Assembly (NCBI GenBank): GCA_963772375.1
Contig: CAVYXG010000001.1
Span: 856,086-920,085, forward strand
Direction of reading: 5' to 3'
From: an uncultured Actinomycetes bacterium
Lineage (GTDB): Bacteria > Actinomycetota > UBA4738 > JACQTL01
Length of the DNA stretch: 64,000 nucleotides
The number at the start of each line of letters is the position of its first letter. The stretch's first letter is position 1. This document shows positions 22,448 through 40,358 of this stretch, in pieces. A model generated the notes under the pieces. The model was not told the origin of the DNA. It made no database searches and saw only the letters and a program-made list of their open reading frames with translations. The translations under genes were made by a program, and so were the position numbers.

Positions 22448-22795
22448 ATGAAGCGCTACCTGCTGAGCATCTACCAGCCCGACGGGCCGCCGCCGCCTGA
22501 CCTCGACCTGGGGAAGGTCATGGCCGACGTGAACGCCCTGGTCGAGGAGACGAAGTCCACCGGGGCGTGGGTGTTCAACGGCGGGCTCCACACGCCGGAC
22601 TCCGCGACCGTGCTCCGCCAGTCGGGTGGCGACGTGCTCGTCGTCGACGGGCCCTATCTGGAGGGCAAGGAACACGTGGGCGGGCTGATCGTGCTCGATG
22701 GGGCGGACCTCGACGCCGCGCTCGGGTGGGGGCGGCGGTTCGCGCGGGCGATCGGGCTGCCCATCGAGGTGCGGCCGTTCCAGGAGGAGGGCTGA
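22448..22795 (+). CDS. YciI-like (DGPF-domain) protein
   Basis: 115-aa [15 protein letters not shown]...[13 protein letters not shown], a typical YCII-related domain upstream of an ECF sigma gene. Confidence 0.7.
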
Positions 22796-24027
22796 CGGAG
22801 ACCGAGAGCGCCGTCATCGCCCGGGACATCGACGCCGTGTTCCGTGCCGAACACGGCCGGGCGCTGGCGGTGCTGGTCCGGGTCTTCGGCGACATCGACG
22901 TCGCCGAGGAATCGCTCCAGGACGCGTTCACCGTTGCGGTGGAACGGTGGCCGGCCGAAGGCCTGCCGTCCAGCCCCACCGGGTGGATCATCACCACCGC
23001 CCGCCGGCGGGCGATCGACCGGCTCCGCCGGGAGGCGTCCCGGGACGACCGCCACGCCCAGGCCGCGCTCCTGCACGAACGCGGCGAGCCGCCCGAGGAG
23101 GGCGCCGTGCACGACGACCGCCTGCGATTGATCTTCACGTGCTGCCACCCCGCGCTCGCCACGCCGGCCCAGGTGGCGCTGACGCTCCGGCTGCTGGGCG
23201 GGCTGACCACCGCCGAGATCGCCAAGGCGTTCCTCGTGCCGGAACCGACGATGGCGCAGCGCCTCGTCCGGGCCAAGGCGAAGATCCGCGACGCCGGGAT
23301 CCCGTACCGGGTCCCGTTCGAATCGGACCTGCCCGACCGGCTGCGCTCGGTCCTGGCGGTCGTGTACCTGATCTTCAACGAGGGGTACGCGGCGGCCTCG
23401 GGCGACCGGCTGGTGCGGGAGGAGCTCTGCGCGGAGGCCATCCGGCTGGGGCGGCTGCTGGCGGAGCACATGCCGGACGAACCGGAGGTGTGGGGACTGC
23501 TCGCCCTGATGCTGTTCTCCGAGGCGAGGCGTGCGGCGCGCGTCGGACCCGACGGCGAGCTCGTGCTGCTCGCAGACCAGGACCGAACGAAGTGGGACCC
23601 CGTGCTGATCGATGAGGCCCGCGGCATCGTCCGGGCGTGCCTGCGCCGCAACCGGCCGGGTCCGTACCAGGTGCAGGCGGCGATCAACGCGGTTCACCAC
23701 GACGCATCCGACCCGGCCGCCACGGACTGGCGCCAGATCGTGCACCTGTACGACCAGCTGGTCGTGCTCGATCCCAGCCCCGTGGTGGCGCTGAACCGCG
23801 CGGTCGCTGTCGCGGAGGTCGACGGGCCGGAGCGGGCGCTGGCGCTCGCGGACGACCTCGACCTCGACTCCTACTACCTGTTCCACGCCATCCGGGCCGA
23901 CCTCTTGCGCCGTCTCGACCGAGACGCGGAGGCCGCATCCGAATACGAGGCGGCGATCGCGCTCGCAGACGGCTCGGTCGAACGGGAGTTCCTCCGGGGT
24001 CGCCTCGAATCGCTGTCCAGTAGGTGA
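22792..24027 (+). CDS. ECF sigma factor with C-terminal TPR-like extension (COG4941 type)
   Basis: Sigma-70 region 2 ([22 protein letters not shown]) and region 4 ([21 protein letters not shown]) plus a roughly 250-aa C-terminal domain. The start is uncertain: no in-frame ATG, and CTG 22792 or GTG 22837 are possible. Confidence 0.75.
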
Positions 24028-25980: not shown

Positions 25981-26030
25981 GTCGGAGAAGGTCCACAGGC
26001 CGTCGGGGCCGGTCACTACACTCGCCGGGA

Positions 26031-26113
26031 GCGAGAGTGGCGAAACGGCAGACGCGCCGGACTTAGGATCCGGTGCCCGAAAGGGCGTGGGGGTTCGACT
26101 CCCCCCTCTCGCA
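26031..26113 (+). tRNA. tRNA-Leu (TAG), intact; attachment site for downstream islands
   Basis: Acceptor GCGAGAG/CTCTCGC. Anticodon loop CTTAGGA. Long variable arm TGCCCGAAAGGGCGT. T-arm GGGGGTTCGACTCCCCC. Confidence 0.85.
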
Positions 26114-26633
26114 CCCCCTCTGACCTGCGGATCTTTGGTCAGAAGGACCACGAACGGGATCCGCCGCCAACCGAGGAATGGCCTTCTTGCCCACGCTTGC
26201 TCACGATCGCTCGGTTCGCATAAGAATGATCGAGGCGCGGGCAGGGCCCAGGGCACGTCCAACTTCCGAGAGTCGGTCAAGGTCAAAGCCCCTCAAAGCG
26301 CAAGGCGAGGAAGCCCTCTGACGACTTCTTCCGTGGCGGCCTCGGGGCGCGGTCGTCGGCCGCCGGTCTACGGGGCGCAGGCACTGAGCAACGGACCTCG
26401 CGCTGGCAGCCTCATGTAGTTGCCTCCATCTACAGCCGGCGGCACGTTCCATCCGGCGCGGACCCTGAGCTCGGGTTCCGCGTGGCCCGACGGATGACCT
26501 CCCGGACCAGGTCTTCACTGATGCTCGGCCAGTAGCACTCGACCAAGAAGGTCGCCGTGGTTCCTCCCATCGATCCGGGGGCCGTCGGAGAGGCTCTCGA
26601 ACTCAGCCAAGAGCCCTCCATGGAGTCTTCCCG

Positions 26634-27602
26634 CTAGCTCGGTCGCGGCCCCCAGTCCGGAGAGCTGTCGAAGATTGCCGAGTGGGTCACGTTGCGGAGC
26701 CCGGAGCCGTCCAAGTTCATGACCCAGATATCCGGATTCGATGGCTGCCCATCCACGCCGAGGTTATGAGAGACCGTGATCATCGTCCCGTCAGGGGAGA
26801 AGGAATAGGACCCCCACTGGTGGAAGCCGTTGAAGGTGTGGGTGATCCGGTGCAGGCCGCTCCCGTTCGGGTGGACCAGATACAGATTGTCCGTGCGGTC
26901 CTGCCCATCGTAGGACTCGAGCAGGATCCACCGCCCGTTCGGCGACCAGTCGGGGCCGTCACCCGCGTGCAGTCTCCAGGGGCTGACCCGCCGCACGTGC
27001 GTTCCGTTCAGGCGGATGGTGAAGACGGCATGCTGGCCGGATTTGCCGTTCCCTTGGAACACCAGGCGGGTTCCGCCAGGGGACCACTGGGCGAACTGAC
27101 CCTCATACTTGGTCGGTGTGACCTGGCGGACATGAGTGCCGTCCGCCTGCATCACGAACACCGCCACCAGGCCGATCGAATCGTCGTATCGAGTGAATGC
27201 GATCCGCTTCCCGTTCGGCGACCAGGCGGGATAGACATCGTCAACGCTCGGGTCCTTGCTGATCTGGGTGAGGTGCGTTCCGTCGGGCCTCACCTTGAAG
27301 ATTCTGGTGGGTTTGCAGGAACACACGGCGGCCTGCCGATAGAAGGCGATCCACCTGCCGTCCGGGGACCAGTCTGGCTCTGTGTCGAGGAAGACCTTCC
27401 CCCGGTGCGTGATCTGCCTCACACCGATGCCGTTGGGCCTGATGGTGAAGATTGCCCCCAGGGTGTGGTCGTCGTTGAAGTACCGCCGGAACGTGATGCG
27501 GCCGTTCTTCCCAGGCGCGGTCGCGCCGGCGGAGGGGGAGCTCGACAGCATTGTCACCAACGCCGCTGTGACTGCCGCCACGAAGACGATGAAGCGTTTC
27601 AT
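26634..27602 (-). CDS. secreted TolB-like beta-propeller protein (PD40/WD40-like repeats)
   Basis: Signal peptide MKRFIVFVAAVTAALVTML followed by repeated DWSPDGRWIAF / AWSPNGKRIAF / QWSPGGTRLVF / DWSPNGRWILL blades. Confidence 0.8.
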   Translation of the reverse strand: MKRFIVFVAAVTAALVTMLSSSPSAGATAPGKNGRITFRRYFNDDHTLGAIFTIRPNGIGVRQITHRGKVFLDTEPDWSPDGRWIAFYRQAAVCSCKPTRIFKVRPDGTHLTQISKDPSVDDVYPAWSPNGKRIAFTRYDDSIGLVAVFVMQADGTHVRQVTPTKYEGQFAQWSPGGTRLVFQGNGKSGQHAVFTIRLNGTHVRRVSPWRLHAGDGPDWSPNGRWILLESYDGQDRTDNLYLVHPNGSGLHRITHTFNGFHQWGSYSFSPDGTMITVSHNLGVDGQPSNPDIWVMNLDGSGLRNVTHSAIFDSSPDWGPRPS

Positions 27603-27677
27603 GCTCAGGTTCCCCTTTCGATAGGGCGGAACGGGGGGAATGCAGCCCCGACGGGGCCGTCGGAGTGCTGTCGCAGA

Positions 27678-28136
27678 TCAGTCGATGTGCATCGTCCCGT
27701 CGTAGACGTCGACGATCAGCGGCAAGGTGGAATCCGGGGTGCCCGCCAGGGTTCCGCTGCCGTGGAGCTTCGCGAAGGCCCCAGTCCCGTCAGTGACGTT
27801 CCAGGTTCCGATGGTCGAGCCGTCCTCGAAGTTCAGCGTCACCCGCAGCAGCACCTCGAACGTGTCGCCCGGGCTCCCCGCACAGGCGAACAGCTTCCCG
27901 ATGAGGATCTGGGCGTGGCCACCCCCGCCCCCGACGAGTCCGCTGTTGAAGGCGTTGGTGACGACTCCAGATGGGCAGACTGGCCCGGTGGCGGTGAACG
28001 GGTCCGGCGGTTGGGCCGTGGTCTGGACGACGATGTGCACGGCTTGCGATGTCGAGGCCCCCGCCGGGATCGCCAGCGTCCCCGCGCCCGCCACCAACAT
28101 GGCGGTGAGGCTCAGAACGATCAGTGGTCGCTTCAT
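27678..28136 (-). CDS. secreted hypothetical protein
   Basis: 152 aa from ATG 28136. Signal peptide MKRPLIVLSLTAMLVAGAGTLAIPAGAS. Confidence 0.55.
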   Translation of the reverse strand: MKRPLIVLSLTAMLVAGAGTLAIPAGASTSQAVHIVVQTTAQPPDPFTATGPVCPSGVVTNAFNSGLVGGGGGHAQILIGKLFACAGSPGDTFEVLLRVTLNFEDGSTIGTWNVTDGTGAFAKLHGSGTLAGTPDSTLPLIVDVYDGTMHID

Positions 28137-28306
28137 ATGGATCTCCCTTCCGAGTTCGTCTCCGGACTCAACAGGCGACGTTCGCGCACTGCGCCGGGCC
28201 AGCGAGATGAACATCGCAGTCACGCGATCGAGCCCCAACGACTGAACTTCTCCTCATGGATGTCCTCCTCGCAACCTCTCGTTCCGAGTCGGTTGGTGAC
28301 GTCTCG

Positions 28307-28918
28307 TCAAGTGACACCCTCCTCTACGCTGGAAGCCGCCTCGGCCAGAGCAGCGGGAGGCCCCGATATCCCGGTGAGGAGCTCGAATGCCGCATCAACC
28401 TCGGATGGAGCGTTGTTTGGGATCGCGGGCATGAAGGCCCGATCGCCGATCTCCCACGAGATGATCTCGGCGCCCTGTTCGTAGCCGCGAAGCGCCCACG
28501 GCTCCTCCCGGCTGTTCCAGGCATCGAGGCCTCGGAGCCGAAGGAAGCGCGACTTCAACTCGGCCGGAACGTTCGCATCGAGCCAGATGTGGCCCATCTC
28601 GTGGAGCAGGGTCCCTCGGCTCAACTCGTCGACATGCGTCGTGCACATGTCGACCGTGCCGTCCGCCGCGTAGCCGGTCGTGCCGCCGCACTCAGATAGA
28701 TCCTCGTGGAACCGCACCTCCACGTCGGGCGGGTCAAGCCTTGCGACCTCGAACCGACCGATCGCCCACCGAACGAGTCGGAGCTGATCGGGCCGGCCAC
28801 CCACGACCACGACCCGTGGATTCCGCCACGAGATGTGGGTCCCGACCTCCGAGCCCCCTCCCACGGTGAAGACTGCGAGCACCGCGATCAGAGCCCGGAA
28901 CGGCTTGCCGTTGCCCAT
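28307..28918 (-). CDS. secreted putative HExxH zinc metalloprotease
   Basis: 203 aa from ATG 28918. N-terminal hydrophobic signal. LLHEMGHIWLDANVP motif. Confidence 0.55.
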   Translation of the reverse strand: MGNGKPFRALIAVLAVFTVGGGSEVGTHISWRNPRVVVVGGRPDQLRLVRWAIGRFEVARLDPPDVEVRFHEDLSECGGTTGYAADGTVDMCTTHVDELSRGTLLHEMGHIWLDANVPAELKSRFLRLRGLDAWNSREEPWALRGYEQGAEIISWEIGDRAFMPAIPNNAPSEVDAAFELLTGISGPPAALAEAASSVEEGVT

Positions 28919-29090
28919 GGGCCGAGGCTCGCGGCCGGGCCTGGAGGTCCAGGTGGAAATCGCTGGAAGAACGCGTGAGGTCTTGGGCTTCACGCGTTCT
29001 TCAAGGACCGAGGTTCAGGGTTCCGGCATGAACCGGCGATCGTTGGGAGCCAGCCTTCCCACCCGGGAACGGGCGGCGTACCGTGCGACC
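28919..29090. promoter_or_regulatory. divergent intergenic region between the secreted-protease gene and the giant SARP-kinase-STAND gene
   Basis: 172-bp gap between divergently transcribed starts. Confidence 0.35.
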
Positions 29091-32000
29091 ATGCGCTTCC
29101 TGGTCCTCGGGCCCCTCGAGGTCACGAACGCCGTCGGGCCGATCCCGCTCGGCGGTCCCAAGCAGCGCCTCGTCCTCGCGAATCTCGCCGTGCGAGCGAA
29201 CGCGGTCGTCTTGGCAGAGACCCTGATCGATCAACTCTGGGGGGACGAACCCCCCGACTCGGCAAAGAACACCCTCCAGACGTACATCTCGCACCTGCGC
29301 AAGGCCCTCGGCCCCGATCGGATCGAGGGGCGTTCTTCCGGGTACGTGCTCCACCTCGACCCTCACGAGCTCGACGCCACGCGGTTCGAGCAGCTTCTCG
29401 GGGAGGCCCGGGCCGCTGACGGACAGCCCGATCGCGTCGGCGGGATTCTGCGAGAGGCACTCGCGATGTGGCGAGGATCGGCGTTCGCCGACCTCGCCGT
29501 CGAGGGATCCCTGGCCGGCGAGATCGCCCGGCTCGAGGAGCTCCGCCTCGGGGCGATCGAAGACCGGATCGCCGCGGATCTTGCATCGGGCCGCCATACC
29601 GGCTTGATCGGCGAGCTCGAGGGCCTCACGCGAGAGCATCCGCTGCGCGAACGCCTCTGGGCCCACCTGATGGTGGCGCTCTACCGGTCCGGCCGGCAGG
29701 CGGACGCCCTCGCGGCGTTCCGGCGGGCCCGCAAGCTCCTCGCGGAGGAGCTCGGCGTCGACCCGTCGCCCGAGCTCCAACGCCTGCAGGATCGAATCCT
29801 CAAGCAGGATCCCGATCTGGAGGTCACGGGGGAGCCCCTCCGCGGCTACCGGCTGCTCGACAAGATCGGGGAGGGCGCGTTCGGACTCGTCTACCGGGCG
29901 GTGCAACCGCAGGTCGGCCGCGAGGTCGCGATCAAGTCGATCCACCCCGAGCTCGCCAACCAACCCGACTTTGTCCGCCGCTTCGAGCACGAGGCGCAGG
30001 TCGTGGCACGCCTGGAGCATCCGCACGTCGTGCCGCTGTACGACTACTGGCGCGACCCCGACGGGGCGTACCTCGTCATGCGGTTGCTGCGCGGCGGGAG
30101 CCTCGAGGATCTGCTCGAACAGGGACCACTGGACTCCACTCGCGCCGCTACCTTCCTGGACCAGGTCGCCGGCGCGCTCGCCGCCGCACACCGCCAGGGC
30201 GTCGTGCACCGGGACGTCAAGCCGGGCAACGTGCTGCTCGACGAGGAAGGCAACGCCTACCTCACGGACTTCGGCGTCGCCCTCGATGCGGGCGCGCCCG
30301 AGCAGACCGCGGGGCTCATGGTGCGCGGCACGCCTGCCTACCTCTCCCCCGAGCAGATCCGCCTCGAGCCCGCGACGGGCCAATCCGACATCTACGCGCT
30401 CGGCGTGGTGCTGTACGAGATGCTCACCGCCGAGCATCCGTTCCCCGAGTCCTCTCTCCGGGTGCTGCTCGACCGGCACATGCACGAACCGCTCCCCTCG
30501 GCTCGAAGGGTTCGACCCGAGATTCCGCCTGCGGTCGACTTGGTGATCGCCCGGGCGACCGCGAAGGACGCGGGAGGACGATTCGCCGACCCGCTCGAGT
30601 TCGCGGCCGCGTTCCGCGGGGCGATCCAGGGGACGGGCGCCCGCCTCGCCGCGACCGAAGAGCTCCGCAACCCCTACAAGGGGCTCCGCGCGTTCCTCGA
30701 GGCCGACGCGGGCGACTTCTTCGGCCGCGATGTCGTGACGAGGCGGCTGGTCGAACGTATGGCTGAGCCGGGTGCCAGTGCGAGGTTCCTGTGCATCGTG
30801 GGGCCCTCGGGCTCAGGCAAGTCCTCGGTGGTGAAAGCCGGCTTGGTCCCGGCCCTGCGCCGCGGCGTGATCGCCGGATCAGAGCTCTGGTACATCGTCG
30901 AGATGATGCCGGGCCCGCATCCGCTGCGTGAGCTCGACACCGCGCTGCTGTCGGTGGCGACCTCGCCGCAGCCCACGCTGGTGGAGGAGCTCGAGCGCGA
31001 CGACCTCGGACTGCTTCGGGCCGTGGACCGGGTCCTCCCCGACCCCTCGGCCGAGCTCGTGATCGTGGTGGATCAGCTCGAGGAGGTGTTCACGCTCGTC
31101 GACGACCAGGTCGAGCGGGCACGGTTCCTCGAGGCGATCGTCGCCGCGGCGACGCACCGAATGAGTCGGGTACGCATCGTGTCGACGCTCCGCGCAGACT
31201 TCTTCGATCAGCCCTTGTCGGTGCGCGGCTTCGGCGACCTGCTCGCCGCCCGGACCGAGGCGATCACGCCGATGTCACCCGAGGAACTGGAGCGCGCGAT
31301 CTCCGGTCCAGCCGAGTGCGTCGGGCTCGGTATCGAGCCCGGCCTGGTCGCGGCGATGGTCGCCGACGTCGTCGATCGTCCGGGCGCCTTGCCCTTGTTG
31401 CAATATGCGCTCACCGAGCTCGTCGAGCGGGACGAGGTCTCCTCGCTCTCCCTCGAGAGCTACCGGTCGATCGGCGGAGTCTCGGGCGCCCTCGCCCGGC
31501 GCGCCGAACGGCTCTACGGGGCGATGGACGAGCCCGGACGAGACGCGTGCCGCCAGCTGTTCCTGCGTCTCGTTACGCTCGGCGAGGGCACCGAGGACAC
31601 TCGCCGCCGCGTCCGTCGATCCGAGATCCCGGCCATGGACGGAGCGACGGACGGGGTGATCGAATCCTTCGGCCGCCACCGCCTGCTGTCCTTCGATCGC
31701 GACGCGCTGTCGCGAGAGCCAACCGTCGAGATCGCCCACGAGGCACTGCTTCGCCAATGGCCCCGTCTCGAGGACTGGTTGGGGGAGGACGCGGAAGCAC
31801 GGGCGCTCCGGGGCCACCTGATCGACGCGGCACGCCAGTGGGATGCGGGCGGCCGCGACGACTCAGAGCTCTATCGGGGCGCCAGGCTCGCGGGGGCGCT
31901 GGACTTCTCCTCCCGGGACGGCCGGCACTTGAACGAGCTCGAGCGGAGCTTTGTCGCGCTCAGTCGGGAGGCGAGCGAACGGGAGACGAGGCGGATCCGT

Positions 32001-34367
32001 AGGACGAACCGGCGTCTGCGCGGCCTGCTCGGTGCGGTCGCACTCTTTCTGGTGGTCGCGTTGATCGCCGCCGGCATCGCGCTCGTGCAGGGAGGCCATG
32101 CGCGGCGCTCGGCGACGGTCGCGCTTTCCCAGAGCCTCGGGGCCCAGGCGATCGCCGAGACACAGCTCGACACCGCACTGCTGCTCGCCGAGGAGGGCGT
32201 GAACCTGGACGACTCCCTACGAACGGAGAGCGACCTACTGGCTGTGCTGCTCCACAGCCCCTCAGCGATCCACGTCCTACATGTCGGCGGGATCGGCGCC
32301 CCTCCGGAGGACATCGTCGTGAGCCCCGACGGCGGGACGCTCGCCGTGCTGACCCGGGATCGCACCCTGCGGTTCTACGACACTTCGACGCTCCAGCCGA
32401 TTGGCAAGCCGGTGCACGACGTGCCCGCGTACAACTCCCGCAGGCCGGCGTTCACCCCCGACAGTTCCGGGCTCTGGGTCCTCCGCGGACCCGGGATCCA
32501 GATGATCAACGTTCGGACCGGCCGGGTCGAGAGCACGATCAGGCTCCACCAGGATGTGGAGAACGTCTACTCGCCCGTTCTTCTCTCTCGGGACGGCCGG
32601 GTCGTGTACCTCCAACTCGAGGGATGGGAGAGCGTCGCAGCGTGGAACACCTCGACGGGACGCCGCCTGGCCGAGGTCAACGTCCCCGGGCTGTCGCTCG
32701 GGATGCTCGCCCTCGCCCAGGAAGCGGGAGAGGTCGTGGCGCTCACGACCCAGGGCGGAGGGCGAATCCAGGTCCGGGACGGCAGGACGCTGGCCCTGGA
32801 GCGGTCGTTTCCCGTGCAGCTTCCTGCGGCGGACCAGTACCAGCTCGCCGTTTCACCGGACGGGCGCACGGCCGCTTGCACCCTGTTCCACCCCGGCGCC
32901 GACCAATCGATCCGATTCGTCGACCTTCGGACCGGCCAGGTCAGGAAGGGCGCCGGCGACCAGGCGGGCGAAGGCCAGGTCGCGTTCTCCCACGATGGCA
33001 GGACAGCCGTCAGCGTGACCGACGACGGCTTCAATATCTCTGTCTGGGATGTCCCTTCGGCCACGCAGGTTCGAACGCTGAGCGGCCACGCCGGAGAGAT
33101 CCTGCAGGCCGCCTTCGATCCCTCGGGGCGAACCCTTTACTCTGCAGCGGATGACGGGAACGTGTTCGCGTGGGATCTCTCGGGACATCGGAGCTTCGGT
33201 CGCTCGTTCACTGCCAGCCAAGGGTCATTCGGTGGGCCCAACGTCGGTCACCATTTCCCATACTTCTCCGCGTCCCCGGATGGGAAGAGCATCGCAGTCG
33301 CCCACGCGACGCAGTTCGATCCCGATGGGGGGGTCAGCACGGGCGGCGAGGTCAATATCGTCGACCTCGCTACCGGGCGGGTCACGACCCGGGTAAGGGT
33401 CGCGGGTCGAGTGCCCGGCATCGACTCGGTCATCTACGCGGAGTTCTCCCCGGACGGCACCGAACTCCTCGTCACCCCCGGCCCCTCGAGCAACGGAGAC
33501 ATCACCCTGTGGCGGTTGGATGGTCACACGGCCAGCCTCGTCCGCACGTTCACCGGACTCAGCGCGACCCCGGTTCGTGACGATAACGGGTTTTGGAACG
33601 CCCCCTGGGCGACGTTCAGCCCTAACGGCAAGTGGATCGCCGGGGTGGACCGACGCGAGAACGGCACCAGCCGAATGATGGAATGGGATGCCGCCACGGG
33701 ATCCGAGCGCGTGGCGCCCCTGGATCTCCATTGGACATCCACCGACGGCCTGCATTTCGATGGCCTCAACCAGAACGTGGTGTATAGCCCCGACGGGTCG
33801 TTGATTGCAACGTCCGTCTTGGGTGACCGTACTGTGATCGTGGACGCAAGGACGCTGAAGCCGGTCCGTACGCTGCCTGATCCAGAAGGGGTCGCGTTCG
33901 TCGCGTTCTCACCGACTAACGACAGGCTGCTCGCGGAGGGGTCGTCGAATGTGGGAATCGTTCGCCTGATTGACGTGACGACAGGCAAACAGGCGGCCGA
34001 AGTAACGGCCTCCAACCCGGGACTGTGGAGCGTCCAGTTCGACCACACCGGGAGCATGCTGCTGACAGATGCGCCGGATGGTGTGGCGCGGTTGTGGTCC
34101 GTCCCCGACCTCCAGCAGATCGGATCCGACCTTCCAGGCCTCTCTAGCGTGGTGGGGGCGGCCACTTTCGCGGGCCGGGGAAGGTCCACGATGGCCGTGC
34201 TCCTTTACGCGACCGGCACGGCGTTCGCATACACGGCGTCGCCCTCCGCGTGGGAGCGCCAGGCGTGCCTCGTGGCCGGTCGAAACTTCACGAAGGCGGA
34301 GTGGGCCCGATACGTCGGCGACCGTACGTACGAGGATGTCTGCCCTGAGTATCCGCCCGGATCCTGA
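29091..34367 (+). CDS. multidomain signal-transduction protein: SARP (OmpR-wHTH+BTAD) - Ser/Thr protein kinase - NB-ARC/STAND P-loop NTPase - TM helix - WD40 beta-propeller
   Basis: Starts MRFLVLGPLEV (SARP). Kinase motifs GEGAFGLVY, VAIK, HRDVKPGNVLL, DFG, APE. P-loop GPSGSGKSS. Single TM LLGAVALFLVVALIAAGIALV. Then many WD repeats (LSGHAGEILQAAFDPSGRTLYSAADDGNVFAWDL). 1758 aa. Confidence 0.85.
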   Translation: MRFLVLGPLEVTNAVGPIPLGGPKQRLVLANLAVRANAVVLAETLIDQLWGDEPPDSAKNTLQTYISHLRKALGPDRIEGRSSGYVLHLDPHELDATRFEQLLGEARAADGQPDRVGGILREALAMWRGSAFADLAVEGSLAGEIARLEELRLGAIEDRIAADLASGRHTGLIGELEGLTREHPLRERLWAHLMVALYRSGRQADALAAFRRARKLLAEELGVDPSPELQRLQDRILKQDPDLEVTGEPLRGYRLLDKIGEGAFGLVYRAVQPQVGREVAIKSIHPELANQPDFVRRFEHEAQVVARLEHPHVVPLYDYWRDPDGAYLVMRLLRGGSLEDLLEQGPLDSTRAATFLDQVAGALAAAHRQGVVHRDVKPGNVLLDEEGNAYLTDFGVALDAGAPEQTAGLMVRGTPAYLSPEQIRLEPATGQSDIYALGVVLYEMLTAEHPFPESSLRVLLDRHMHEPLPSARRVRPEIPPAVDLVIARATAKDAGGRFADPLEFAAAFRGAIQGTGARLAATEELRNPYKGLRAFLEADAGDFFGRDVVTRRLVERMAEPGASARFLCIVGPSGSGKSSVVKAGLVPALRRGVIAGSELWYIVEMMPGPHPLRELDTALLSVATSPQPTLVEELERDDLGLLRAVDRVLPDPSAELVIVVDQLEEVFTLVDDQVERARFLEAIVAAATHRMSRVRIVSTLRADFFDQPLSVRGFGDLLAARTEAITPMSPEELERAISGPAECVGLGIEPGLVAAMVADVVDRPGALPLLQYALTELVERDEVSSLSLESYRSIGGVSGALARRAERLYGAMDEPGRDACRQLFLRLVTLGEGTEDTRRRVRRSEIPAMDGATDGVIESFGRHRLLSFDRDALSREPTVEIAHEALLRQWPRLEDWLGEDAEARALRGHLIDAARQWDAGGRDDSELYRGARLAGALDFSSRDGRHLNELERSFVALSREASERETRRIRRTNRRLRGLLGAVALFLVVALIAAGIALVQGGHARRSATVALSQSLGAQAIAETQLDTALLLAEEGVNLDDSLRTESDLLAVLLHSPSAIHVLHVGGIGAPPEDIVVSPDGGTLAVLTRDRTLRFYDTSTLQPIGKPVHDVPAYNSRRPAFTPDSSGLWVLRGPGIQMINVRTGRVESTIRLHQDVENVYSPVLLSRDGRVVYLQLEGWESVAAWNTSTGRRLAEVNVPGLSLGMLALAQEAGEVVALTTQGGGRIQVRDGRTLALERSFPVQLPAADQYQLAVSPDGRTAACTLFHPGADQSIRFVDLRTGQVRKGAGDQAGEGQVAFSHDGRTAVSVTDDGFNISVWDVPSATQVRTLSGHAGEILQAAFDPSGRTLYSAADDGNVFAWDLSGHRSFGRSFTASQGSFGGPNVGHHFPYFSASPDGKSIAVAHATQFDPDGGVSTGGEVNIVDLATGRVTTRVRVAGRVPGIDSVIYAEFSPDGTELLVTPGPSSNGDITLWRLDGHTASLVRTFTGLSATPVRDDNGFWNAPWATFSPNGKWIAGVDRRENGTSRMMEWDAATGSERVAPLDLHWTSTDGLHFDGLNQNVVYSPDGSLIATSVLGDRTVIVDARTLKPVRTLPDPEGVAFVAFSPTNDRLLAEGSSNVGIVRLIDVTTGKQAAEVTASNPGLWSVQFDHTGSMLLTDAPDGVARLWSVPDLQQIGSDLPGLSSVVGAATFAGRGRSTMAVLLYATGTAFAYTASPSAWERQACLVAGRNFTKAEWARYVGDRTYEDVCPEYPPGS

Positions 34368-34372
34368 CTTAG

Positions 34373-34447
34373 CTTAGGATCCGGTGCCCGAAAGGGCGTG
34401 GGGGTTCGACTCCCCCCTCTCGCACCACGTCTGGCCTGCGGATCTTT
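34373..34447 (+). repeat. direct repeat of the tRNA-Leu(TAG) 3' half (att-like junction copy 2)
   Basis: 53 nt identical to tRNA positions 33-76 (TTAGGATCCGGTGCCCGAAAGGGCGTGGGGGTTCGACTCCCCCCTCTCGCACC) plus a conserved CTGnCCTGCGGAT flank. Starts 6 bp after the stop of the giant gene. Confidence 0.85.
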
Positions 34448-34722
34448 GCACAGACCGACCCGCCCTCGGCTCGACCGAGAAGGCCCGAATGGCCTTCTTG
34501 CTCACGCTTGCTCACAGAACTCCAATCGACGTTGGACCTGGGCGGTGGCTTCCGTGTCAGGGCCACCATCCCCACTGGACCCATGACTGAACCGCCCCGT
34601 GCTTGCCTGAGGCTAGACCCGCGAGATGCCATGCTGACCCGATCGTCCCACCCCGATGCTGGAGCCGGTTCAGAGGGGTGTGGGCTACTGGTGTCCGAAG
34701 CGCGCGTTAGGCAGCCACTACC

Positions 34723-35940
34723 ATGCGGGTCGTGGGCGGACTCACGCGCGATGCATTGGCCGAGCGAGCGGGGGTCCCAACGGGCTACGTTAGCCGCCTG
34801 GTCGACCTCGACATCCTCAGCCCGAGCGACTCGGGCCAGCCCTTCTCCTCCAGTGACGTACGGAGAGTCCGCCTGGTGCACGGCCTCGAGGAAGGCGGGC
34901 TGCCGCTTGATGGAATCAGCAGTGCCGTCCGAAACGGAGATCTCTCATTCGAGTTCCTCGACCTCCCCAGCTGGGACTGGTACGGCGGGTTCGGGGGGAA
35001 GACCTACCGAGAGCTCAGCGCAGAGGCTGGTCTGAGCCTGGATCTGATGAAAGTCATTCGAGAGTCGATGGGATTTGCCCGTCCAGAGCCGCAGGATCCC
35101 GTCCACGAGGAAGACCTCGATCTGATCCCAATGGTGAAGATTGCCCTCGACGCCGGGGCGGACCCAGGGGCGATCCAGCGTCTGGTTCGAGTGTGGGGCG
35201 AGAGCATGCGCCGCATTGCCGAAGCAGCGGCGACCTTCTACCACGCCCAGATCGAGGTCCCGCTCCTTCGGTCGGGAATGAGCGAGGCCCAGGTGCTACA
35301 GGTTGCGAACGAAGCCGTCGCCGCGGGGATCCCCTACGTCGACCGTGCGCTCGCCTCCATGTACCACGGCCACTCGGAGCACACCTGGATGGCAGACGTG
35401 GTCGAGGCAGTGGAGGCCACCCTGGAGAAAGCGGGCCTTCATCACGCGGTGGTTGAACCACCGGCCATCTGCTTCCTCGATCTCTCCGGCTACACGCGGC
35501 TGACCGACGAGAAGGGGGACGAGGCCGCCGCCGAGATCGCGGCGACCCTCGGCGGATTGGTCCAGCGGAGCGCGAACGAGCATGGAGGCCGCCCGGTCAA
35601 GTGGTTGGGCGACGGCGTGATGGTCTACTTCACCGACTCCGACGGAGCCGTGATCTCCGCGCTGGAACTGGCCGATCTCGTGCCGAAGGCTGGCCTTCCG
35701 CCTGCCCACACGGGCATCGATACCGGCCCGGTGATCTTCCAAGACGGGGACTATTTCGGCCGGACCGTCAACACGGCCGCGAGAATCGCCTCTCACGCTG
35801 GATCTGGGGAGGTCTTGGTCAGTGACGACGTCGCGCACTCCGCGCAGAACCCCACCATAAGGTTCGTTGACGTCGGACTCGTCGAGTTGAAGGGCCTGCC
35901 GCGACCCATCCCACTGCACAGGGCCAGCCGCGTTTCGTAG
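34723..35940 (+). CDS. HTH-domain-containing class III adenylate/guanylate cyclase
   Basis: N-terminal HTH (LTRDALAERAGVPTGYVSRLVDL). C-terminal CHD (FLDLSGYTRLT...KWLGDGVMVYF...GRTVNTAARI). Confidence 0.8.
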   Translation: MRVVGGLTRDALAERAGVPTGYVSRLVDLDILSPSDSGQPFSSSDVRRVRLVHGLEEGGLPLDGISSAVRNGDLSFEFLDLPSWDWYGGFGGKTYRELSAEAGLSLDLMKVIRESMGFARPEPQDPVHEEDLDLIPMVKIALDAGADPGAIQRLVRVWGESMRRIAEAAATFYHAQIEVPLLRSGMSEAQVLQVANEAVAAGIPYVDRALASMYHGHSEHTWMADVVEAVEATLEKAGLHHAVVEPPAICFLDLSGYTRLTDEKGDEAAAEIAATLGGLVQRSANEHGGRPVKWLGDGVMVYFTDSDGAVISALELADLVPKAGLPPAHTGIDTGPVIFQDGDYFGRTVNTAARIASHAGSGEVLVSDDVAHSAQNPTIRFVDVGLVELKGLPRPIPLHRASRVS

Positions 35941-36306: not shown

Positions 36307-37842
36307 GTGAACGTGTTGCTGTGGCACGGCTGGGTCCTCGAGGGGGCCGGGTCGAACGTCTACACGGCCCGCATCGCGGAGGTGTACCGCCGGATGGGCC
36401 ACGACGTGACGCTCGTCTGCCAGGAGCCGCATCCGGAGCGATTTCCATGGATCGACGCATGGGGCCACGTCGCCCGTGAGGAGGTGAGGCTCGAGGGACG
36501 ACGTCCGAGCACGGGTTCTGCCGGACGATGCACGGCGCTGGCACCGCGGATCGGTTCACTGCTGCCGGTGTTCGTGATCGACGATTACGAGGGCTTCCCC
36601 CACGTGAAGCGCTTCGTCGACTGCACGGACGACGAACTGGACGCGTACCTCCGCGCGAACGTCGACGCCCTGCGCGCGGTGGCAGCGGGGTGCCGTCCGG
36701 ACGTCGTCATCGCCGGGCACGCGCTGCCAGGCCCGGTCGTGACTCGGCGTGCGTTGGGGGATGGGTTCGTGGCCAGGATCCACGGCAGCGACCTGGAGTA
36801 CGCGGTACGCGAACAGCCTCGGTGCCGCGACCTGGCCGCCGAGGGGCTCGGCGGCGCGTGCGCCGTGATCGGCGCCAGCAAGGACGTGCTGCGGCGGTGC
36901 GAGGAACTCGTGCCGGAGTCGGCCGGCCGAACGCTGGTCGTCCCGCCGGGTGTCGACGTGTCGAGGTTCCGGCCGCGCCAACGGAACGAAGCGCTCAAGG
37001 AGACGACCGCGGTACTGGAAAGTGACCTCGCACGCCGGGCCGGCCGTCCCGCCACTGTGGACGAGGCGACCCGCGAGGCGCTCGCGGCACGTGATGCCCC
37101 CATGCTGGACCACCTTGCCAGGACCTACGATCAGACCGTTCCCGACCCCGACGCTCCCGTCCGCCTTCGCGAGCTCGCCGCGTTCGATGGCCCGGTGGTC
37201 GGGTATCTGGGGAAGTTCATCCTTCAGAAGGGCCTGCACCATCTCCTGGCGGCGCTGGCCCTCCTGGGCGAGCGCGCACCTCGAGCGCTGCTGATCGGAT
37301 TCGGTCTCGGGCGGGAATGGCTCGTCGCCCTGACCGGCGCGCTCGATCGTGGCGACGTCGGTGCGGTGCGATGGTGGGAGGGAACGACCGGCGAGCGCCT
37401 CGGCCTCGATGACGCGGCCATCGACGGCGCGAGAGGGCTGGCGAACCGCGTGACGTTCACCGGGCTGCTCGACCATCGCTTCGCCCCCGCCGCGGTGGCC
37501 TCGCTCGACGTGCTGGTGGTGCCGTCGATCCTGGCGGAGGCGTTCGGGATGGTGACGGTGGAGGGCGCTGCCGCGGGGGCACTGCCACTGGTGGCCCGAC
37601 ACTCGGGCCTGGCCGAGATCGCCTCCGCCCTGGAGGCAGAGGTCGGACGCCCGGGGATGTTCTCGTACGAGCCGGGCGCCGGCGGGCCCGGCCGGATCGC
37701 CGATGGCATGGACCGGCTGATCGCCCAGCCATTCGAGGAACAGAGTTACTTGCGCGAGACCGTCGTCGCGTTCTGCCGCCGGGAATGGACCTGGGACCGT
37801 ACCGCCGAGCGTCTGCTCGAGGCAGCACGCGCGGCCGGATGA
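36307..37842 (+). CDS. GT4-family glycosyltransferase
   Basis: 511 aa. GT-B fold with the C-terminal E-x7-E region (VVPSILAEAFGMVTVEGAAAGALPLVARHSGLAEI). Confidence 0.8.
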   Translation: MNVLLWHGWVLEGAGSNVYTARIAEVYRRMGHDVTLVCQEPHPERFPWIDAWGHVAREEVRLEGRRPSTGSAGRCTALAPRIGSLLPVFVIDDYEGFPHVKRFVDCTDDELDAYLRANVDALRAVAAGCRPDVVIAGHALPGPVVTRRALGDGFVARIHGSDLEYAVREQPRCRDLAAEGLGGACAVIGASKDVLRRCEELVPESAGRTLVVPPGVDVSRFRPRQRNEALKETTAVLESDLARRAGRPATVDEATREALAARDAPMLDHLARTYDQTVPDPDAPVRLRELAAFDGPVVGYLGKFILQKGLHHLLAALALLGERAPRALLIGFGLGREWLVALTGALDRGDVGAVRWWEGTTGERLGLDDAAIDGARGLANRVTFTGLLDHRFAPAAVASLDVLVVPSILAEAFGMVTVEGAAAGALPLVARHSGLAEIASALEAEVGRPGMFSYEPGAGGPGRIADGMDRLIAQPFEEQSYLRETVVAFCRREWTWDRTAERLLEAARAAG

Positions 37843-37957
37843 CCGGTCCACTTGCTCACACCCTGCTCACGACAGATCGGGACCGGGTGCCATGGAACGA
37901 CACCAGACGACACGAATCGACGCGTCCACGCCCGGTTCGTGCGTGGCCGTACCCGCT

Positions 37958-38027
37958 TTAGGATCCGGTGCCCGAAAGGGCGTGGGGGTTCGACTCCCCC
38001 CTCTCGCACCACCTCTGACCTGCGAAT
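37958..38027 (+). repeat. direct repeat of the tRNA-Leu(TAG) 3' half (copy 3)
   Basis: Same perfect 53-nt core plus CTCTGACCTGCGAAT flank. The CTTGCTCAC-like motif lies about 90 nt upstream (37845-37870). Confidence 0.85.
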
Positions 38028-38280
38028 TGTCGGTCCGAGAGCGCGACCGGGACCCGGCACCCCTCGACCCGAGCCTTCCTGAGCACCTTCCTCACAGGGC
38101 AGCCTCCGATAGGGGCTGGCGGGATGGGAGCAAGAACCCGTCAGCAACCCCAATGCTCATCAGGTCCTAGAAGGCCTTCCAGCTGATGGAAAGCGTGCGA
38201 CCTCCGCGCCGTCAGGGCATCATACGGTCTGTGGGCATTGCAATCGATGACGCGAGCGGCACAATCTTGCGCGCTCGCCG

Positions 38281-39621
38281 ATGGCCGGCCAGATGAGCGA
38301 CGCCCCGGAGACCCACTATGTCGCTGTGGGCGACGCCGACGTGGCGTATCAGACGGTCGGCGAGGGACCGGTTGACCTGTTGTTCTGCTATGGACTGGGC
38401 AGCCACGTTGACTTCATGTGGCAGATTCCTAGCGTCGCCGCGTTTCTGAACCGCTTAGCGTCAGGTTTCAGGCTCATCGTGTTCGACCGCCGAGGTACCG
38501 GTGCGTCTGATGGTGTTCCCCGTAACGCGGTTCCCACGTTGGAGGATTGGACCGAGGACATCGCGGCGGTGCTTGACGCAACGGGCTCCCGTCGGGCCGC
38601 CATCTTCGCCACTCTCGACACGGGTCCGATTGCGCTCCTGTACTCGGCGATGCATCCCGAGCGGGTGACTGGACTCGCGTTATTGAACACGAGCGCTCGG
38701 TTCATCGAGGCGGAGGACTACCCGATCGGCTTCACGCAAGAAGCCGCGGACGAGTTGGTGCAGAGCTTTGCGGCGGTGTGGGGAACACCCGAACTCATCG
38801 CGCTTGCTAATCCGAGCGCGGATCCGGAGTTCGTACAGTTCACTGCGCCGGTAATGCGCGCTTCGGCCACGCCTCGCAGCGCAGCCGCCCAATACCGCAA
38901 CGTCCTTGGAAACGATGTCCGTCAAGCGCTGCCGCTCATTCGGGTGCCCACGCTGGTTCTCAACGTCAAGGACCAACCGCTCGTCTCGATCGCCCAGGGT
39001 CGTTACCTTGCCGACCACATCGACGGAGCAACCTTCGTTGAACTGCCGGGTAGCGACCTTTCCTTTACTCCTGCCAATCTTGTGATCGCTGATGAGATTG
39101 CCGAGTTCCTGACCGGCGAACGGCCCGTGGTCGAGGTCGAGCGCATCCTCACCACCGTCCTGTTCACCGACATTGTCGGCTCGACAGAACGTGCAGGGTC
39201 TCTGGGAGATCAACGATGGCGCACCCTCCTCGATGCGCACGACAGGGCGGTGCGGGAACAGCTTCGTCGCTTCCGCGGTCGCGAGATCAACACCACCGGA
39301 GACGGATTTGTCGCTTCGTTCGACGGTCCAGCTCGGGCCATCCAGAGCGCTAAAGCGATCATCGAAGCCACGGGACGACTTGGAATCGAACTCCGAGCCG
39401 GACTGCACACCGGTGAATGCGAAGTCCGCGGCGACGACCTTGCCGGACTCGCGGTCCACATCGCCGCGCGGGTCGGCGCACTTGCGACATCCGGGGAAGT
39501 CCTCGTCTCTGTGACGGTCAAGGATCTGGTCGTTGGCTCCGGGATCGACTTCATTGATCGTGGGGAACACCACCTCAAAGGCGTCCCCGGCACCGTGAGA
39601 CTTTTCGCGGTCGACGGCTGA
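38281..39621 (+). CDS. alpha/beta-hydrolase-fold plus class III nucleotide cyclase fusion (LipJ-like architecture)
   Basis: N-terminal alpha/beta hydrolase fold with a non-canonical elbow (ATLDTGP). C-terminal CHD (VLFTDIVGST...TTGDGFVASF...GLHTGE). Confidence 0.8.
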   Translation: MAGQMSDAPETHYVAVGDADVAYQTVGEGPVDLLFCYGLGSHVDFMWQIPSVAAFLNRLASGFRLIVFDRRGTGASDGVPRNAVPTLEDWTEDIAAVLDATGSRRAAIFATLDTGPIALLYSAMHPERVTGLALLNTSARFIEAEDYPIGFTQEAADELVQSFAAVWGTPELIALANPSADPEFVQFTAPVMRASATPRSAAAQYRNVLGNDVRQALPLIRVPTLVLNVKDQPLVSIAQGRYLADHIDGATFVELPGSDLSFTPANLVIADEIAEFLTGERPVVEVERILTTVLFTDIVGSTERAGSLGDQRWRTLLDAHDRAVREQLRRFRGREINTTGDGFVASFDGPARAIQSAKAIIEATGRLGIELRAGLHTGECEVRGDDLAGLAVHIAARVGALATSGEVLVSVTVKDLVVGSGIDFIDRGEHHLKGVPGTVRLFAVDG

Positions 39622-39738: not shown

Positions 39739-39781
39739 GGTGGGGGATCCCCCCTCTCGCACCCTCTTGAGCTGCGGATCT
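39739..39781 (+). repeat. degenerate tRNA-Leu 3'-end copy (T-loop deleted)
   Basis: GTGGGGGATCCCCCCTCTCGCACCCTCTTGAGCTGCGGATC matches the T-stem/acceptor/flank of the repeat family with an internal deletion. Confidence 0.5.
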
Positions 39782-40358
39782 CGCCCTGACGATCCTCGAC
39801 AAGGCCCGTCGACGACGAGCCACTCGGGGCGACAGACCCACACCTCGGTGAGCTTCCCATCGTGGACATACGAGACGACCGCCACGTTCGATTCGAGGGT
39901 CCGCCCCCCCGCGGGTTCGCTTCTGAGGCCGCAGCCACCCACCGCACATGCACCTGGGCCATGACCTCCCGGCCGCCGGGACAGGCCGGGCCAGGCTTGC
40001 CCTTGCCTCGGCCCGTGGTGCCGGCATTGGAGAACCGCTCCGTCCACACGCAGCAGGTCCACCACTTCGGGTGGGCATTGTGCATGAGGTCGAGGCACAT
40101 CCAGGCCACCACCTCGCGGGCCTCCGGCACCGGCTCGCCCTGACACCGGAAGTGGAGGGGCCGGGACCGCACGGAGTCCGGCGAAGGCGAGCCAGGTCAG
40201 CACGGCTGGCGGATGGCACCGATGCGCTGGTCAGAGCACGAATCGGAGTCTGGCGCCTTGAGGTATCGTACTTGTCCTTCACAGGGGGGCGGGGGTCTGT
40301 CCCCTTGGCACGTTCGGGAGGAGGTCGCCCATGGCGCCCTTCAGGAGGGAGGTCGCTC

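Follow-up and report, generated by a model that had tools for sequence, protein, structure and literature searches.

The locus described here raises two questions: can a single bacterial polypeptide join a sensor outside the cell to an ATPase, a protein kinase and a promoter-binding domain inside it, and which of the genes beside it belong to the same system? The polypeptide is encoded by a large gene on the forward strand of a 64,000-nucleotide stretch of DNA from an uncultured Actinomycetes bacterium (the window, below, is this whole stretch), and three genes are transcribed divergently from it across a short control region (Table 1). A sequence-only reading of the window had described the large protein as an unusual fusion of SARP, kinase, NB-ARC, transmembrane and WD40 parts, and had grouped all four genes into one envelope-sensing or proteolytic signal-relay module. 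Comparison with related loci makes a smaller arrangement, on balance, the probable one: a two-gene module in which a type-II single-pass receptor activates its own gene and induces its own zincin, the small HExxH protein encoded by the nearest of the three neighbours.

The open reading frame (ORF) at 28833..34367 (+) holds a 1758-aa reading that begins MRFLVLGPLEV at 29091, the one originally reported. The true start is probably the in-frame ATG at 29028, which gives 1779 aa: an in-frame ATG or GTG is kept across relatives 21-27 codons ahead of the MRF start, and a database sequence that is 100% identical to the large protein (P0001; sources NCBI and ENA) also has 1779 aa. The 172 bp of shared control region that had been counted are therefore present as 28919..29090, but from the probable start the intergenic gap is 109 bp.

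At the N-terminus of the large protein, an OmpR-type winged helix (Pfam Trans_reg_C PF00486, aa 23-78; 8e-10, 39 bits against a cut-off of 26.2) is followed by a BTAD domain (PF03704, aa 94-237; 2e-45, 155 bits against a cut-off of 22.1), the succession that characterizes the SARP family. The NCBIfam equivalog for AfsR (NF053617) reaches 210 bits against a cut-off of 1430, with an alignment limited to aa 1-244. The Hanks-type kinase (PF00069, aa 253-459; 9e-51, 173 bits) has an intact Gly-rich loop (GEGAFG), VAIK lysine, HRDVKPGN, DFG and APE-like SPE motif, all nearly invariant among homologues (alignment A3). The NTPase is of the nSTAND1 family: PF20703 matches it at full length (profile positions 1-378 of 379; 1e-115, 388 bits), and its Walker A (GPSGSGKSS) and Walker B (VVDQLEE) motifs are intact and invariant in alignment A1. 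NB-ARC (PF00931) is neither among the 25 listed of the 32 Pfam families that matched nor in the precomputed Pfam list of P0001; because the AfsR model matches the SARP part alone, the NTPase is assigned to nSTAND1 and not to the NB-ARC/AfsR type, and the earlier label is withdrawn. WD40 and PD40 matches extend across aa ~1180 to 1680 (PF00400, 70 bits). Apart from that label, the composition first read from the sequence is borne out by Pfam, motifs and conservation: a SARP domain, a kinase, a STAND P-loop, a single transmembrane helix and a WD40 region stand in one polypeptide.

The fusion is not unusual, contrary to what had been supposed. A search of 5.8 billion proteins, in which 8,000 candidates were scored, gave 6,941 matches at E <= 1e-30, and all 120 of the best homologues combine SARP, kinase and nSTAND1. 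Seventy-five of these end in WD40, most of them being ~1,700-1,880 aa long and 46-50% identical over the full length, and 41 end in SBP_bac_1, with 60-69% identity over the first 54-64% of the query. They derive from soil metagenomes and from metagenome-assembled genomes (MAGs) labelled Actinomycetota, and carry automatic names ('BTAD domain-containing putative transcriptional regulator', 'protein kinase domain-containing protein'); the closest relative is in a MAG labelled 'Actinomycetota bacterium' (GCA_045805265.1). Species-representative genomes, when scanned, gave at least 20 relatives, which sets a lower bound on the taxonomic range. Among the matches listed, Chloroflexota relatives have kinase, STAND and WD40, other distant relatives have SARP, STAND and WD40 or SBP, those of Gaiellales and Micromonosporaceae have STAND and WD40 alone, and the match to Streptomyces relatives is confined to the STAND module. 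To judge from these architectures, the SARP-kinase-STAND fusion appears to be a modular family, not a one-off, and the module is widespread in uncultured soil Actinomycetota. No publication on the SARP-kinase-nSTAND1-transmembrane-WD40 architecture was found, nor one naming a transmembrane helix as a feature of the nSTAND1 clade, in a searched literature that holds few subscription journals.

On which side of the membrane the WD40 region lies can be judged from four kinds of evidence. The transmembrane helix (mean Kyte-Doolittle hydropathy 2.8 over 19 residues) lies ~410 residues past Walker A, the same distance as in 119 of 120 homologues, and is kept in 15 of 15 distant relatives from Chloroflexota, Gaiellales, Solirubrobacterales, Micromonosporaceae and Streptomyces. 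The residues flanking the helix carry a mean net charge of +3.9 N-terminally and +1.4 C-terminally, and in 107 of 114 homologues the N-terminal value is the larger. An even number of cysteines (2, 4, 6, 8 or 10) follows the helix in 109 of 114 full-length homologues, as against 46 of 114 with an even number before it; even counts past the helix are the pattern expected of exported disulfide-bonded domains, and a binomial p-value for this parity is overstated, the homologues being related. Finally, SBP_bac_1, an extracellular solute-binding domain, takes the place of WD40 behind the same helix and stalk in the 41 homologues that end in it. Because of the conserved helix, the N-in charge bias, the cysteine parity and the exchange of sensors, the topology is likely N-in/C-out with the WD40 region outside the cell, the placement that had been predicted and that is now supported as the most probable.

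An AlphaFold model of aa 975-1758 (pLDDT 82.6, pTM 0.81) shows a long transmembrane helix, two short helices, the strands of tandem propellers and a two-helix tail, in keeping with the helix and propeller first read from the sequence. Its best Foldseek matches are 2ymu, a Nostoc WD40 protein (E 8e-32), and Apaf-1 (3shf/3sfz). The PF00400 match, the strand pattern of the model and these Foldseek matches identify the region as WD40 beta-propeller, with about 14 blades by a reading of the modelled strands. The outer helical stalk of ~70 residues, with the motif LD.SLLLA..AV, is common to WD40-type and SBP-type proteins, and the sensors beyond it are unrelated. The tail with its pair of cysteines recurs in many WD40-type homologues (P0002-P0059), either as RAC..AGRNLT..EW....Y...CP or as LTR..T..EC..YLH...CP; possibly it forms a small capping domain stapled by a disulfide.

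The 203-aa product of the nearest divergent gene has no match in Pfam, NCBIfam, PADLOC or PDB sequences and belongs to no curated peptidase family; two long relatives of it give marginal M78 and SprT matches only. A word-indexed search yielded 83 clusters, all 'hypothetical', and a profile search of 1.84 billion representatives (50% identity) yielded 1,481 clusters of the family at E <= 1e-3 and 209 at E <= 1e-30. Residues C77, C92, H106, E107, H110, W112, W134, N135, W141, R144 and E147 are invariant. The protein has HExxH on an active-site helix, a third zinc ligand and an alpha/beta fold, the features of a zincin, and the description that suits it best is that of an exported mini-zincin from a family not described before; it is probably disulfide-bonded. 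The three divergent genes, whose products had been noted as secreted, all encode signal-peptide-like N-termini, basic then hydrophobic, and two of them have an A-G-A cleavage-like site (judged by eye).

Which of the three divergent genes belongs with the large gene was examined from both sides: relatives of the large gene supplied 24 loci, and relatives of the zincin 80 metagenome loci. The locus of an 87% identical orthologue (L001) shares the HExxH gene alone, which is divergent there too and 75% identical. A divergent HExxH gene also stands beside a 50% identical WD40-type relative (L002; zincin 46% identical) and an SBP-type relative (L004; 44%). In 60 of the 80 metagenome loci at least 450 nt are available upstream of the zincin gene, and 52 of these informative loci have a divergent SARP-kinase-STAND gene beside it, at gaps of 154-283 nt and, in two cases, 748 nt. 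No counterpart of the 152-aa or the 322-aa protein is encoded in L001, L004 or the 80 metagenome loci. A blastn comparison of the window with L001 finds homology exactly over 28370..34368 (6,002 bp at 86.6%), which stops short of the last ~60 nt of the zincin gene. Because the zincin gene alone is conserved beside the large gene and the 152-aa and PD40 genes are not found in related loci, the conserved functional unit appears to be two genes, not four; the co-occurrence that the sequence-only reading expected of its module holds for the HExxH gene and fails for the other two.

Where the zincin gene lacks a SARP neighbour, another STAND regulator mostly stands beside it: seven of eight such metagenome genes sit directly downstream of an AAA_16-TPR-LuxR STAND regulator, and the zincin family seems to be tied to STAND-type transcription factors generally. 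The zincins of L027 (429-3888), L034, L035, L036, L043, L049 and L055 are a 244-aa variant with an N-terminal extension, encoded on the same strand as, and immediately 3′ of, an AAA_16-TPR-GerE (LAL/MalT-like STAND) regulator. In four loci, a WD40-type and an SBP-type module stand in tandem, each with its own zincin. The order in these (L051, L067, L070 and L071; for example L067 3900-12900) is WD40-type receptor, zincin-1, SBP-type receptor, zincin-2, with each receptor divergent from its own zincin, and in L067 the boxes of the two modules differ (TTTCAGCG vs TCCAAGCG/TTACAAGG). The tandem modules look like insulated parallel circuits. In L004, L046, L075, L101 and L104, a Phosphoesterase (PF04185) gene, mostly together with a ROK-family gene, adjoins the receptor-zincin pair, which indicates a conserved chromosomal location unlike the tRNA-flanked site in the window.

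The control region offers a means by which the large protein might act on both genes. The pattern CTTCAMG-N4-CTTCMAG, with one mismatch allowed, occurs twice in the window, at 28988-29005 (+) and 28963-28980 (-), where 0.03 occurrences are expected. Each match is a pair of 11-nt-phased repeats, the two pairs are mutually inverted, and both are in this intergenic region; a pattern scan of the window found no SARP-type box ahead of the 152-aa or 322-aa gene. A scan for consensus sigma-70 promoters found none in 26000-34700, and the promoter-like elements in Table 1 are derived from conservation across loci. In a comparison set of 51 non-redundant intergenic regions, a threshold of at least 7 matching positions out of 9 is reached by the rightward repeats of 43, of which 40 have them 39-45 nt ahead of an in-frame ATG or GTG; the core of the repeats varies by subgroup (TTTCAGCG, TGCAAGC, TTGCACG, TCAAGCG). 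An xAxxxT hexamer precedes the upstream in-frame start by 6-7 nt in 49 of the 51 regions, and the proximal pattern recurs in 46, its two hexamers 17-18 nt apart and the second of them exactly 6 nt from the start. On the zincin side, an xAxxxT hexamer (mostly GACCGT) is found 6-7 nt before the start in 45 of 50 non-redundant loci, against a background of 3.3% per position.

The afs box of AfsR is at -19 to -40, and SARP promoters as a rule have 8 bp between the 3′ repeat and the -10 (PMC10936776). If transcription starts at ATG 29028, the rightward box would have the geometry of an afs box (-19 to -40); its 11-bp direct repeats, the 3′ one ~8 bp from the -10-like hexamer, agree with the SARP rule. 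Counted by hand, 40 nt separate the leftward box from the zincin ATG here and in L001, and 51 nt do so in L004, which puts the box in helical phase with the rightward layout but one or two turns further out; its inverted copies score 17/20 in L001 and 14/20 in L004. At the proximal element, the fourth base of the hexamer may be C, G or A, substitutions that in a coding region would change the amino acid, and wobble variation is absent from the adjoining TTCCC; for these reasons the element is read as a basal leaderless promoter. The TTCCCA-17-TACCGT pair lies within the 21-codon N-terminal extension (29028-29090). The arrangement suggests two leaderless transcripts that would give two isoforms, of 1779 and 1758 aa. 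The 13-bp inverted repeat in the control region might instead be a hairpin in the RNA or an operator bound by a dimeric repressor; neither was taken as the first choice, because each arm is itself an 11-nt-phased tandem repeat and the direct repeat is family-wide.

Table 1. Features of the proposed receptor-zincin locus and its flanks (coordinates in the window)
Feature	Coordinates	Strand	Details	Basis
tRNA-Leu(tag)	26031..26115	+	Rfam tRNA 57.7 bits	ARAGORN; Rfam
PD40 propeller gene	26637..27602	-	322 aa, PD40 1e-21	Pfam
Small-protein gene	27681..28136	-	152 aa, signal-peptide-like N-terminus, no family match	
HExxH gene (mini-zincin)	28310..28918	-	203 aa, HEMGH aa 106-110	
-10-like hexamer GAGCCT	28925..28930	-	6 nt 5′ of zincin ATG, leaderless-type	
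Candidate leftward 22-bp SARP-type box	28959..28980	-	CCTCACGCGTT CTTCCAGCGAT	
Candidate rightward 22-bp SARP-type box	28988..29009	+	CTTCACGCGTT CTTCAAGGACC, two 11-nt direct repeats, 18 nt 5′ of ATG 29028	
Distal -10-like hexamer CAGGGT	29016..29021	+	6 nt ahead of ATG 29028	
Large gene	29028..34367	+	1779 aa from ATG 29028, or 1758 aa from ATG 29091	ORF and translation
Proximal promoter-like element	29056..29084	+	TTCCCA, 17 nt, TACCGT, then 6 nt to ATG 29091	
SARP domain	29157..29801	+	winged helix (OmpR-type) aa 23-78 and BTAD aa 94-237	Pfam
Hanks-type Ser/Thr kinase	29847..30635	+	aa 253-515	NCBIfam PknB-type match
nSTAND1 NTPase	30672..31862	+	aa 528-924	Pfam PF20703 and Walker motifs
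Single transmembrane helix	32025..32087	+	aa 979-999, LLGAVALFLVVALIAAGIALV, preceded by RRIRRTNRRLR	
Juxtamembrane helical module	32088..32255	+	aa ~1000-1055, predicted outer side	alignment of 20 sequences; helices in AlphaFold model
Tandem WD40-class beta-propellers	32271..34235	+	aa ~1061-1715	AlphaFold, Foldseek
C-terminal two-helix tail	34242..34343	+	C1726/C1751, motif ACxxAGRNxT..EW....Y...CP	helices at model residues 744-755, 761-768
Second repeat copy	34373..34515	+	block identities 92% and 97%	

The domain content, the conservation of the helix, the indicators of topology, the pairing of the genes and the presence and geometry of the boxes are observed here. In the mechanism that we infer, which extends to DNA binding by the SARP domain, transmembrane signalling, the targets of the kinase and the activity and substrate of the protease, the receptor would place ~980 residues (SARP, kinase and nSTAND1) in the cytoplasm, followed by the transmembrane helix, an outer stalk and a double WD40 propeller as ligand sensor. 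The basal promoter TTCCCA-17-TACCGT would keep a little receptor in the membrane. A ligand outside the cell would act through the stalk and the transmembrane helix on the STAND module, which would bind ATP and oligomerise. Oligomerisation would bring kinase domains next to each other for trans-phosphorylation and let two SARP domains bind next to each other at the tandem repeats of the 22-bp boxes. Occupation of the rightward box at -19 to -40 of the leaderless start would then give positive autoregulation in the manner of AfsR and afsS, and occupation of the inverted leftward box, which is two helical turns more distant from the zincin start, would induce the zincin. The zincin might be an output enzyme, or a feedback protease that acts on the ligand or on the outer stalk of the receptor; that each receptor paralogue has a zincin of its own speaks for a specific link between the two. 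A more ambitious statement of the same idea, in which the large protein is a transmembrane NLR-like receptor that converts an outside cue into ATP-dependent oligomerisation inside, acting through its fused kinase and SARP domain, with a dedicated zincin that processes the ligand or clips the stalk, is plausible but falls short of being probable.

Several observations weigh against the autoactivating two-gene receptor. The topology indicators are indirect and are drawn from related, non-independent sequences, and the large protein itself has three cysteines past its transmembrane helix, an odd number, the extra one being C1263. The full-length orthologue L003 has no zincin, nor has any of the more distant relatives L005-L021, which makes the pairing specific to certain lineages. 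Here the rightward box repeats at 6 of 9 positions, less well than in most relatives. A clear leftward box is confined to the subgroup to which this locus belongs, and in the largest subgroup the box is weak (10-12/20); it is off the class-II position, and no -10-like hexamer lies 8 bp after it. The conserved 'promoter' within the 21-codon extension could also mean constraint at the level of the protein instead.

The main rival, though an unlikely one, makes the large protein an nSTAND1-type conflict or immunity sensor, whose surface WD40 region would detect a component of a phage, predator or epibiont and whose STAND oligomerisation would fire the kinase together with defensive transcription, including that of a secreted protease. 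The family itself invites this explanation, nSTAND1 having been defined in bacterial conflict systems with variable N-terminal effectors that include kinases (PMC8195603), and oral Actinobacteria sense epibionts via a surface WD40-class propeller coupled to Ser/Thr kinases (PMC13622651). Sensor domains are exchanged among the paralogues, nSTAND1 relatives are common on plasmids, and the gene is part of a segment of low G+C (~70% over the window, 65-66% in 26-29 kb) that has tRNA-fragment repeats at its borders. Against it, the outputs are a transcription activator and a kinase, with no toxic or suicide effector; no defence genes form its context here, and PADLOC matches the generic kinase domain only. 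In most relatives the pair is in the conserved chromosomal setting of phosphoesterase and ROK genes, not in an island, and the alternative solute-binding sensor points to the sensing of small molecules.

The four-gene cassette first proposed, acquired together as an envelope-sensing or proteolytic relay, now appears quite improbable. Its attraction is the position of all four genes between two 143-bp direct repeats derived from tRNA-Leu, which bound an 8.3-kb segment. The reference copy of this att-like repeat (26062-26204) is the 3′ half of the tRNA-Leu gene with its downstream flank; the second copy begins at the sixth base past the stop codon of the large gene, as had been reported, and is a tRNA-Leu 3′ fragment in which 34373-34460 copies 26062-26149 at 92%. 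The three small genes run in the same direction, 173 and 78 nt apart, no terminator is predicted in either gap, and PD40 proteins adjoin the zincin in L002 and L101. Those PD40 proteins, however, are unrelated, not detectably orthologous to the 322-aa protein, and the 152-aa and 322-aa genes are the ones that lack counterparts at the orthologous locus, in L004 and in the 80 metagenome loci. The DNA homology to the orthologue stops inside the zincin gene, only the right-hand 6 kb of the 8.3-kb segment is conserved elsewhere, and the surroundings of the two-gene unit in L001 are different ones, without a neighbouring tRNA. The large ORFs scanned in the segment and around it (22.5-45 kb) include no integrase, and the segment has no DNA similarity to known plasmids. 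The segment itself may still have entered the genome in one piece. As for the two extra genes, the 152-aa protein has no match in Pfam, NCBIfam or PADLOC, and the 322-aa protein, to judge from its repeats, is a PD40-repeat protein; the name 'TolB-like' fits those repeats but not the TolB equivalog itself (TIGR02800), which gives 105.8 bits against a cut-off of 343 in an alignment limited to the propeller part. Of the proposed module, the HExxH gene stands and these two genes fall away.

Equally doubtful is a cytoplasmic WD40 region, in which the helix would be a membrane tether or a buried oligomerisation helix and the propellers, as in Apaf-1 and PkwA, would sense an intracellular protein. 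The nearest solved structures to the C-terminal region are indeed cytoplasmic, including the Apaf-1 sensor, the C-terminal flank of the helix also has 2-5 basic residues, and the odd cysteine count of the large protein has been mentioned. But a lone apolar helix of 21 residues in mid-chain must split the protein into two halves, of which the half that uses ATP must be inside, and the cysteine parity, the charge bias and the exchange with an extracellular solute-binding domain all speak for the other half being outside. That the zincin is a mere inherited neighbour with no regulatory or functional link is highly improbable: related genomes do share phosphoesterase and ROK synteny around the pair and the zincin is missing beside the L003, L005 and L012 receptors, but the divergent layout with its gap of 150-280 nt persists down to 43% protein identity and across differing sensors, duplicated modules retain one zincin each, the receptor's own box has an inverted counterpart directed at the zincin gene, and the SARP-less zincin genes nearly all lie directly behind another STAND regulator.

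The wider surroundings of the locus contain further tRNA-Leu 3′ fragments, at 37957-38044 (a third copy of the repeat) and, 20 nt only, at 39748, with short segments between them. The next two segments each hold a gene with an adenylate/guanylate cyclase domain (34723-35937, and 38281-39618, the latter fused to an alpha/beta hydrolase), and a GT4 glycosyltransferase is encoded at 36307-37839. A long ORF at 39948-43106 combines an M1-like HExxH part with Big_3_5 and pentapeptide repeats; ARAGORN places a tRNA-Ala(cgc) gene, below the Rfam tRNA gathering score, within it at 42856-42928 (-), and one of these two calls is probably wrong. A group II intron is represented by a maturase ORF with RVT_1 and GIIM (43829-45100) and by Rfam Intron_gpII domain V/VI at 45122-45220. 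On the other side, a glycogen debranching enzyme gene (24046-~25900) abuts the tRNA-Leu gene, and upstream of it an ECF-type sigma factor with a C-terminal DUF6596 is encoded at 22567-24024.

One of the closest known systems is AfsR/AfsK/AfsS of Streptomyces, which likewise brings together an N-terminal SARP domain, a STAND NTPase and a repeat sensor with the involvement of a Ser/Thr kinase, which phosphorylates AfsR. In the target box of AfsR, too, direct repeats of 11 bp occur as a pair; they span -19 to -40, with 8 bp to a weak -10, and the TTCAGC core of most relatives matches the afsS -35/direct-repeat sequence quoted for it (PMC10936776). Unlike AfsR, the large protein has the kinase fused in the same chain and an nSTAND1 module in place of the AfsR NOD; a transmembrane helix parts this NTPase from the sensor, which is WD40 or SBP and predicted to be outside instead of a cytoplasmic TPR; and the neighbour presumed to be regulated is an exported zincin, where that of AfsR is a small adjacent gene (afsS). 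The effect of phosphorylation on a large SARP, which is unresolved for AfsR (PMC10936776), is a question that the present system could address.

The predicted topology of the large protein is that of another group of regulators. ToxR and CadC have a cytoplasmic OmpR-type winged helix, a single transmembrane helix and an extracytoplasmic sensor, and bind DNA while tethered to the membrane. The overall topology would be the same, with the difference that the large protein has ~900 extra cytoplasmic residues (BTAD, kinase and STAND) and that its sequence kinship with them is limited to the winged helix. A Hanks kinase linked to a beta-propeller sensor is a feature shared with actinobacterial receptor kinases such as PknD of M. 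tuberculosis, in the company of PknB, and with the kinase-WD40 protein PkwA. In PknD the kinase is joined to an NHL propeller through one transmembrane helix, and PknB carries PASTA domains; none of the three has a DNA-binding domain or a STAND module, and PkwA is without a transmembrane helix. The full-length nSTAND1 match connects the large protein with the nSTAND1 conflict NTPases (Kaur, Iyer, Burroughs and Aravind 2021), and its C-terminal tandem propellers resemble the sensor fold of Apaf-1. It differs from both in that the N-terminal 'effector' is a transcription activator with a kinase and the sensor is predicted to lie across the membrane. The 203-aa protein, for its part, has 11-15% sequence identity to the Pro-Pro endopeptidases PPEP-2/3 (M34-like) and to Wss1/SprT-like proteins, and its family has its own invariant pair of cysteines and WN and RGYEQGAE motifs; the analysis also delineates this as a family of small exported zincins that had no annotation.

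The usual view of STAND/NLR proteins is that they sense inside the cell, and SARPs are seen as soluble cytoplasmic activators that are signalled by separate kinases. If the NLR-like reading is true, STAND/NLR signalling extends beyond the detection of cues inside the cell, and uncultured soil Actinomycetota possess the AfsK-AfsR logic in the form of a modular, self-contained receptor at their surface. One receptor, one box and one reporter gene would make a compact testable system in which to ask how a STAND module switches across a membrane, and three features lend themselves to experiment: a defined cis-element, a dedicated partner protease and a sensor that is exchanged between paralogues. 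Relative to the large SARP/STAND regulators, the ToxR-like activators and the receptor kinases, what is new is the combination in one chain: a single membrane-spanning polypeptide that would join sensing, ATP-driven assembly, phosphorylation and promoter activation, with exchangeable outer sensors.

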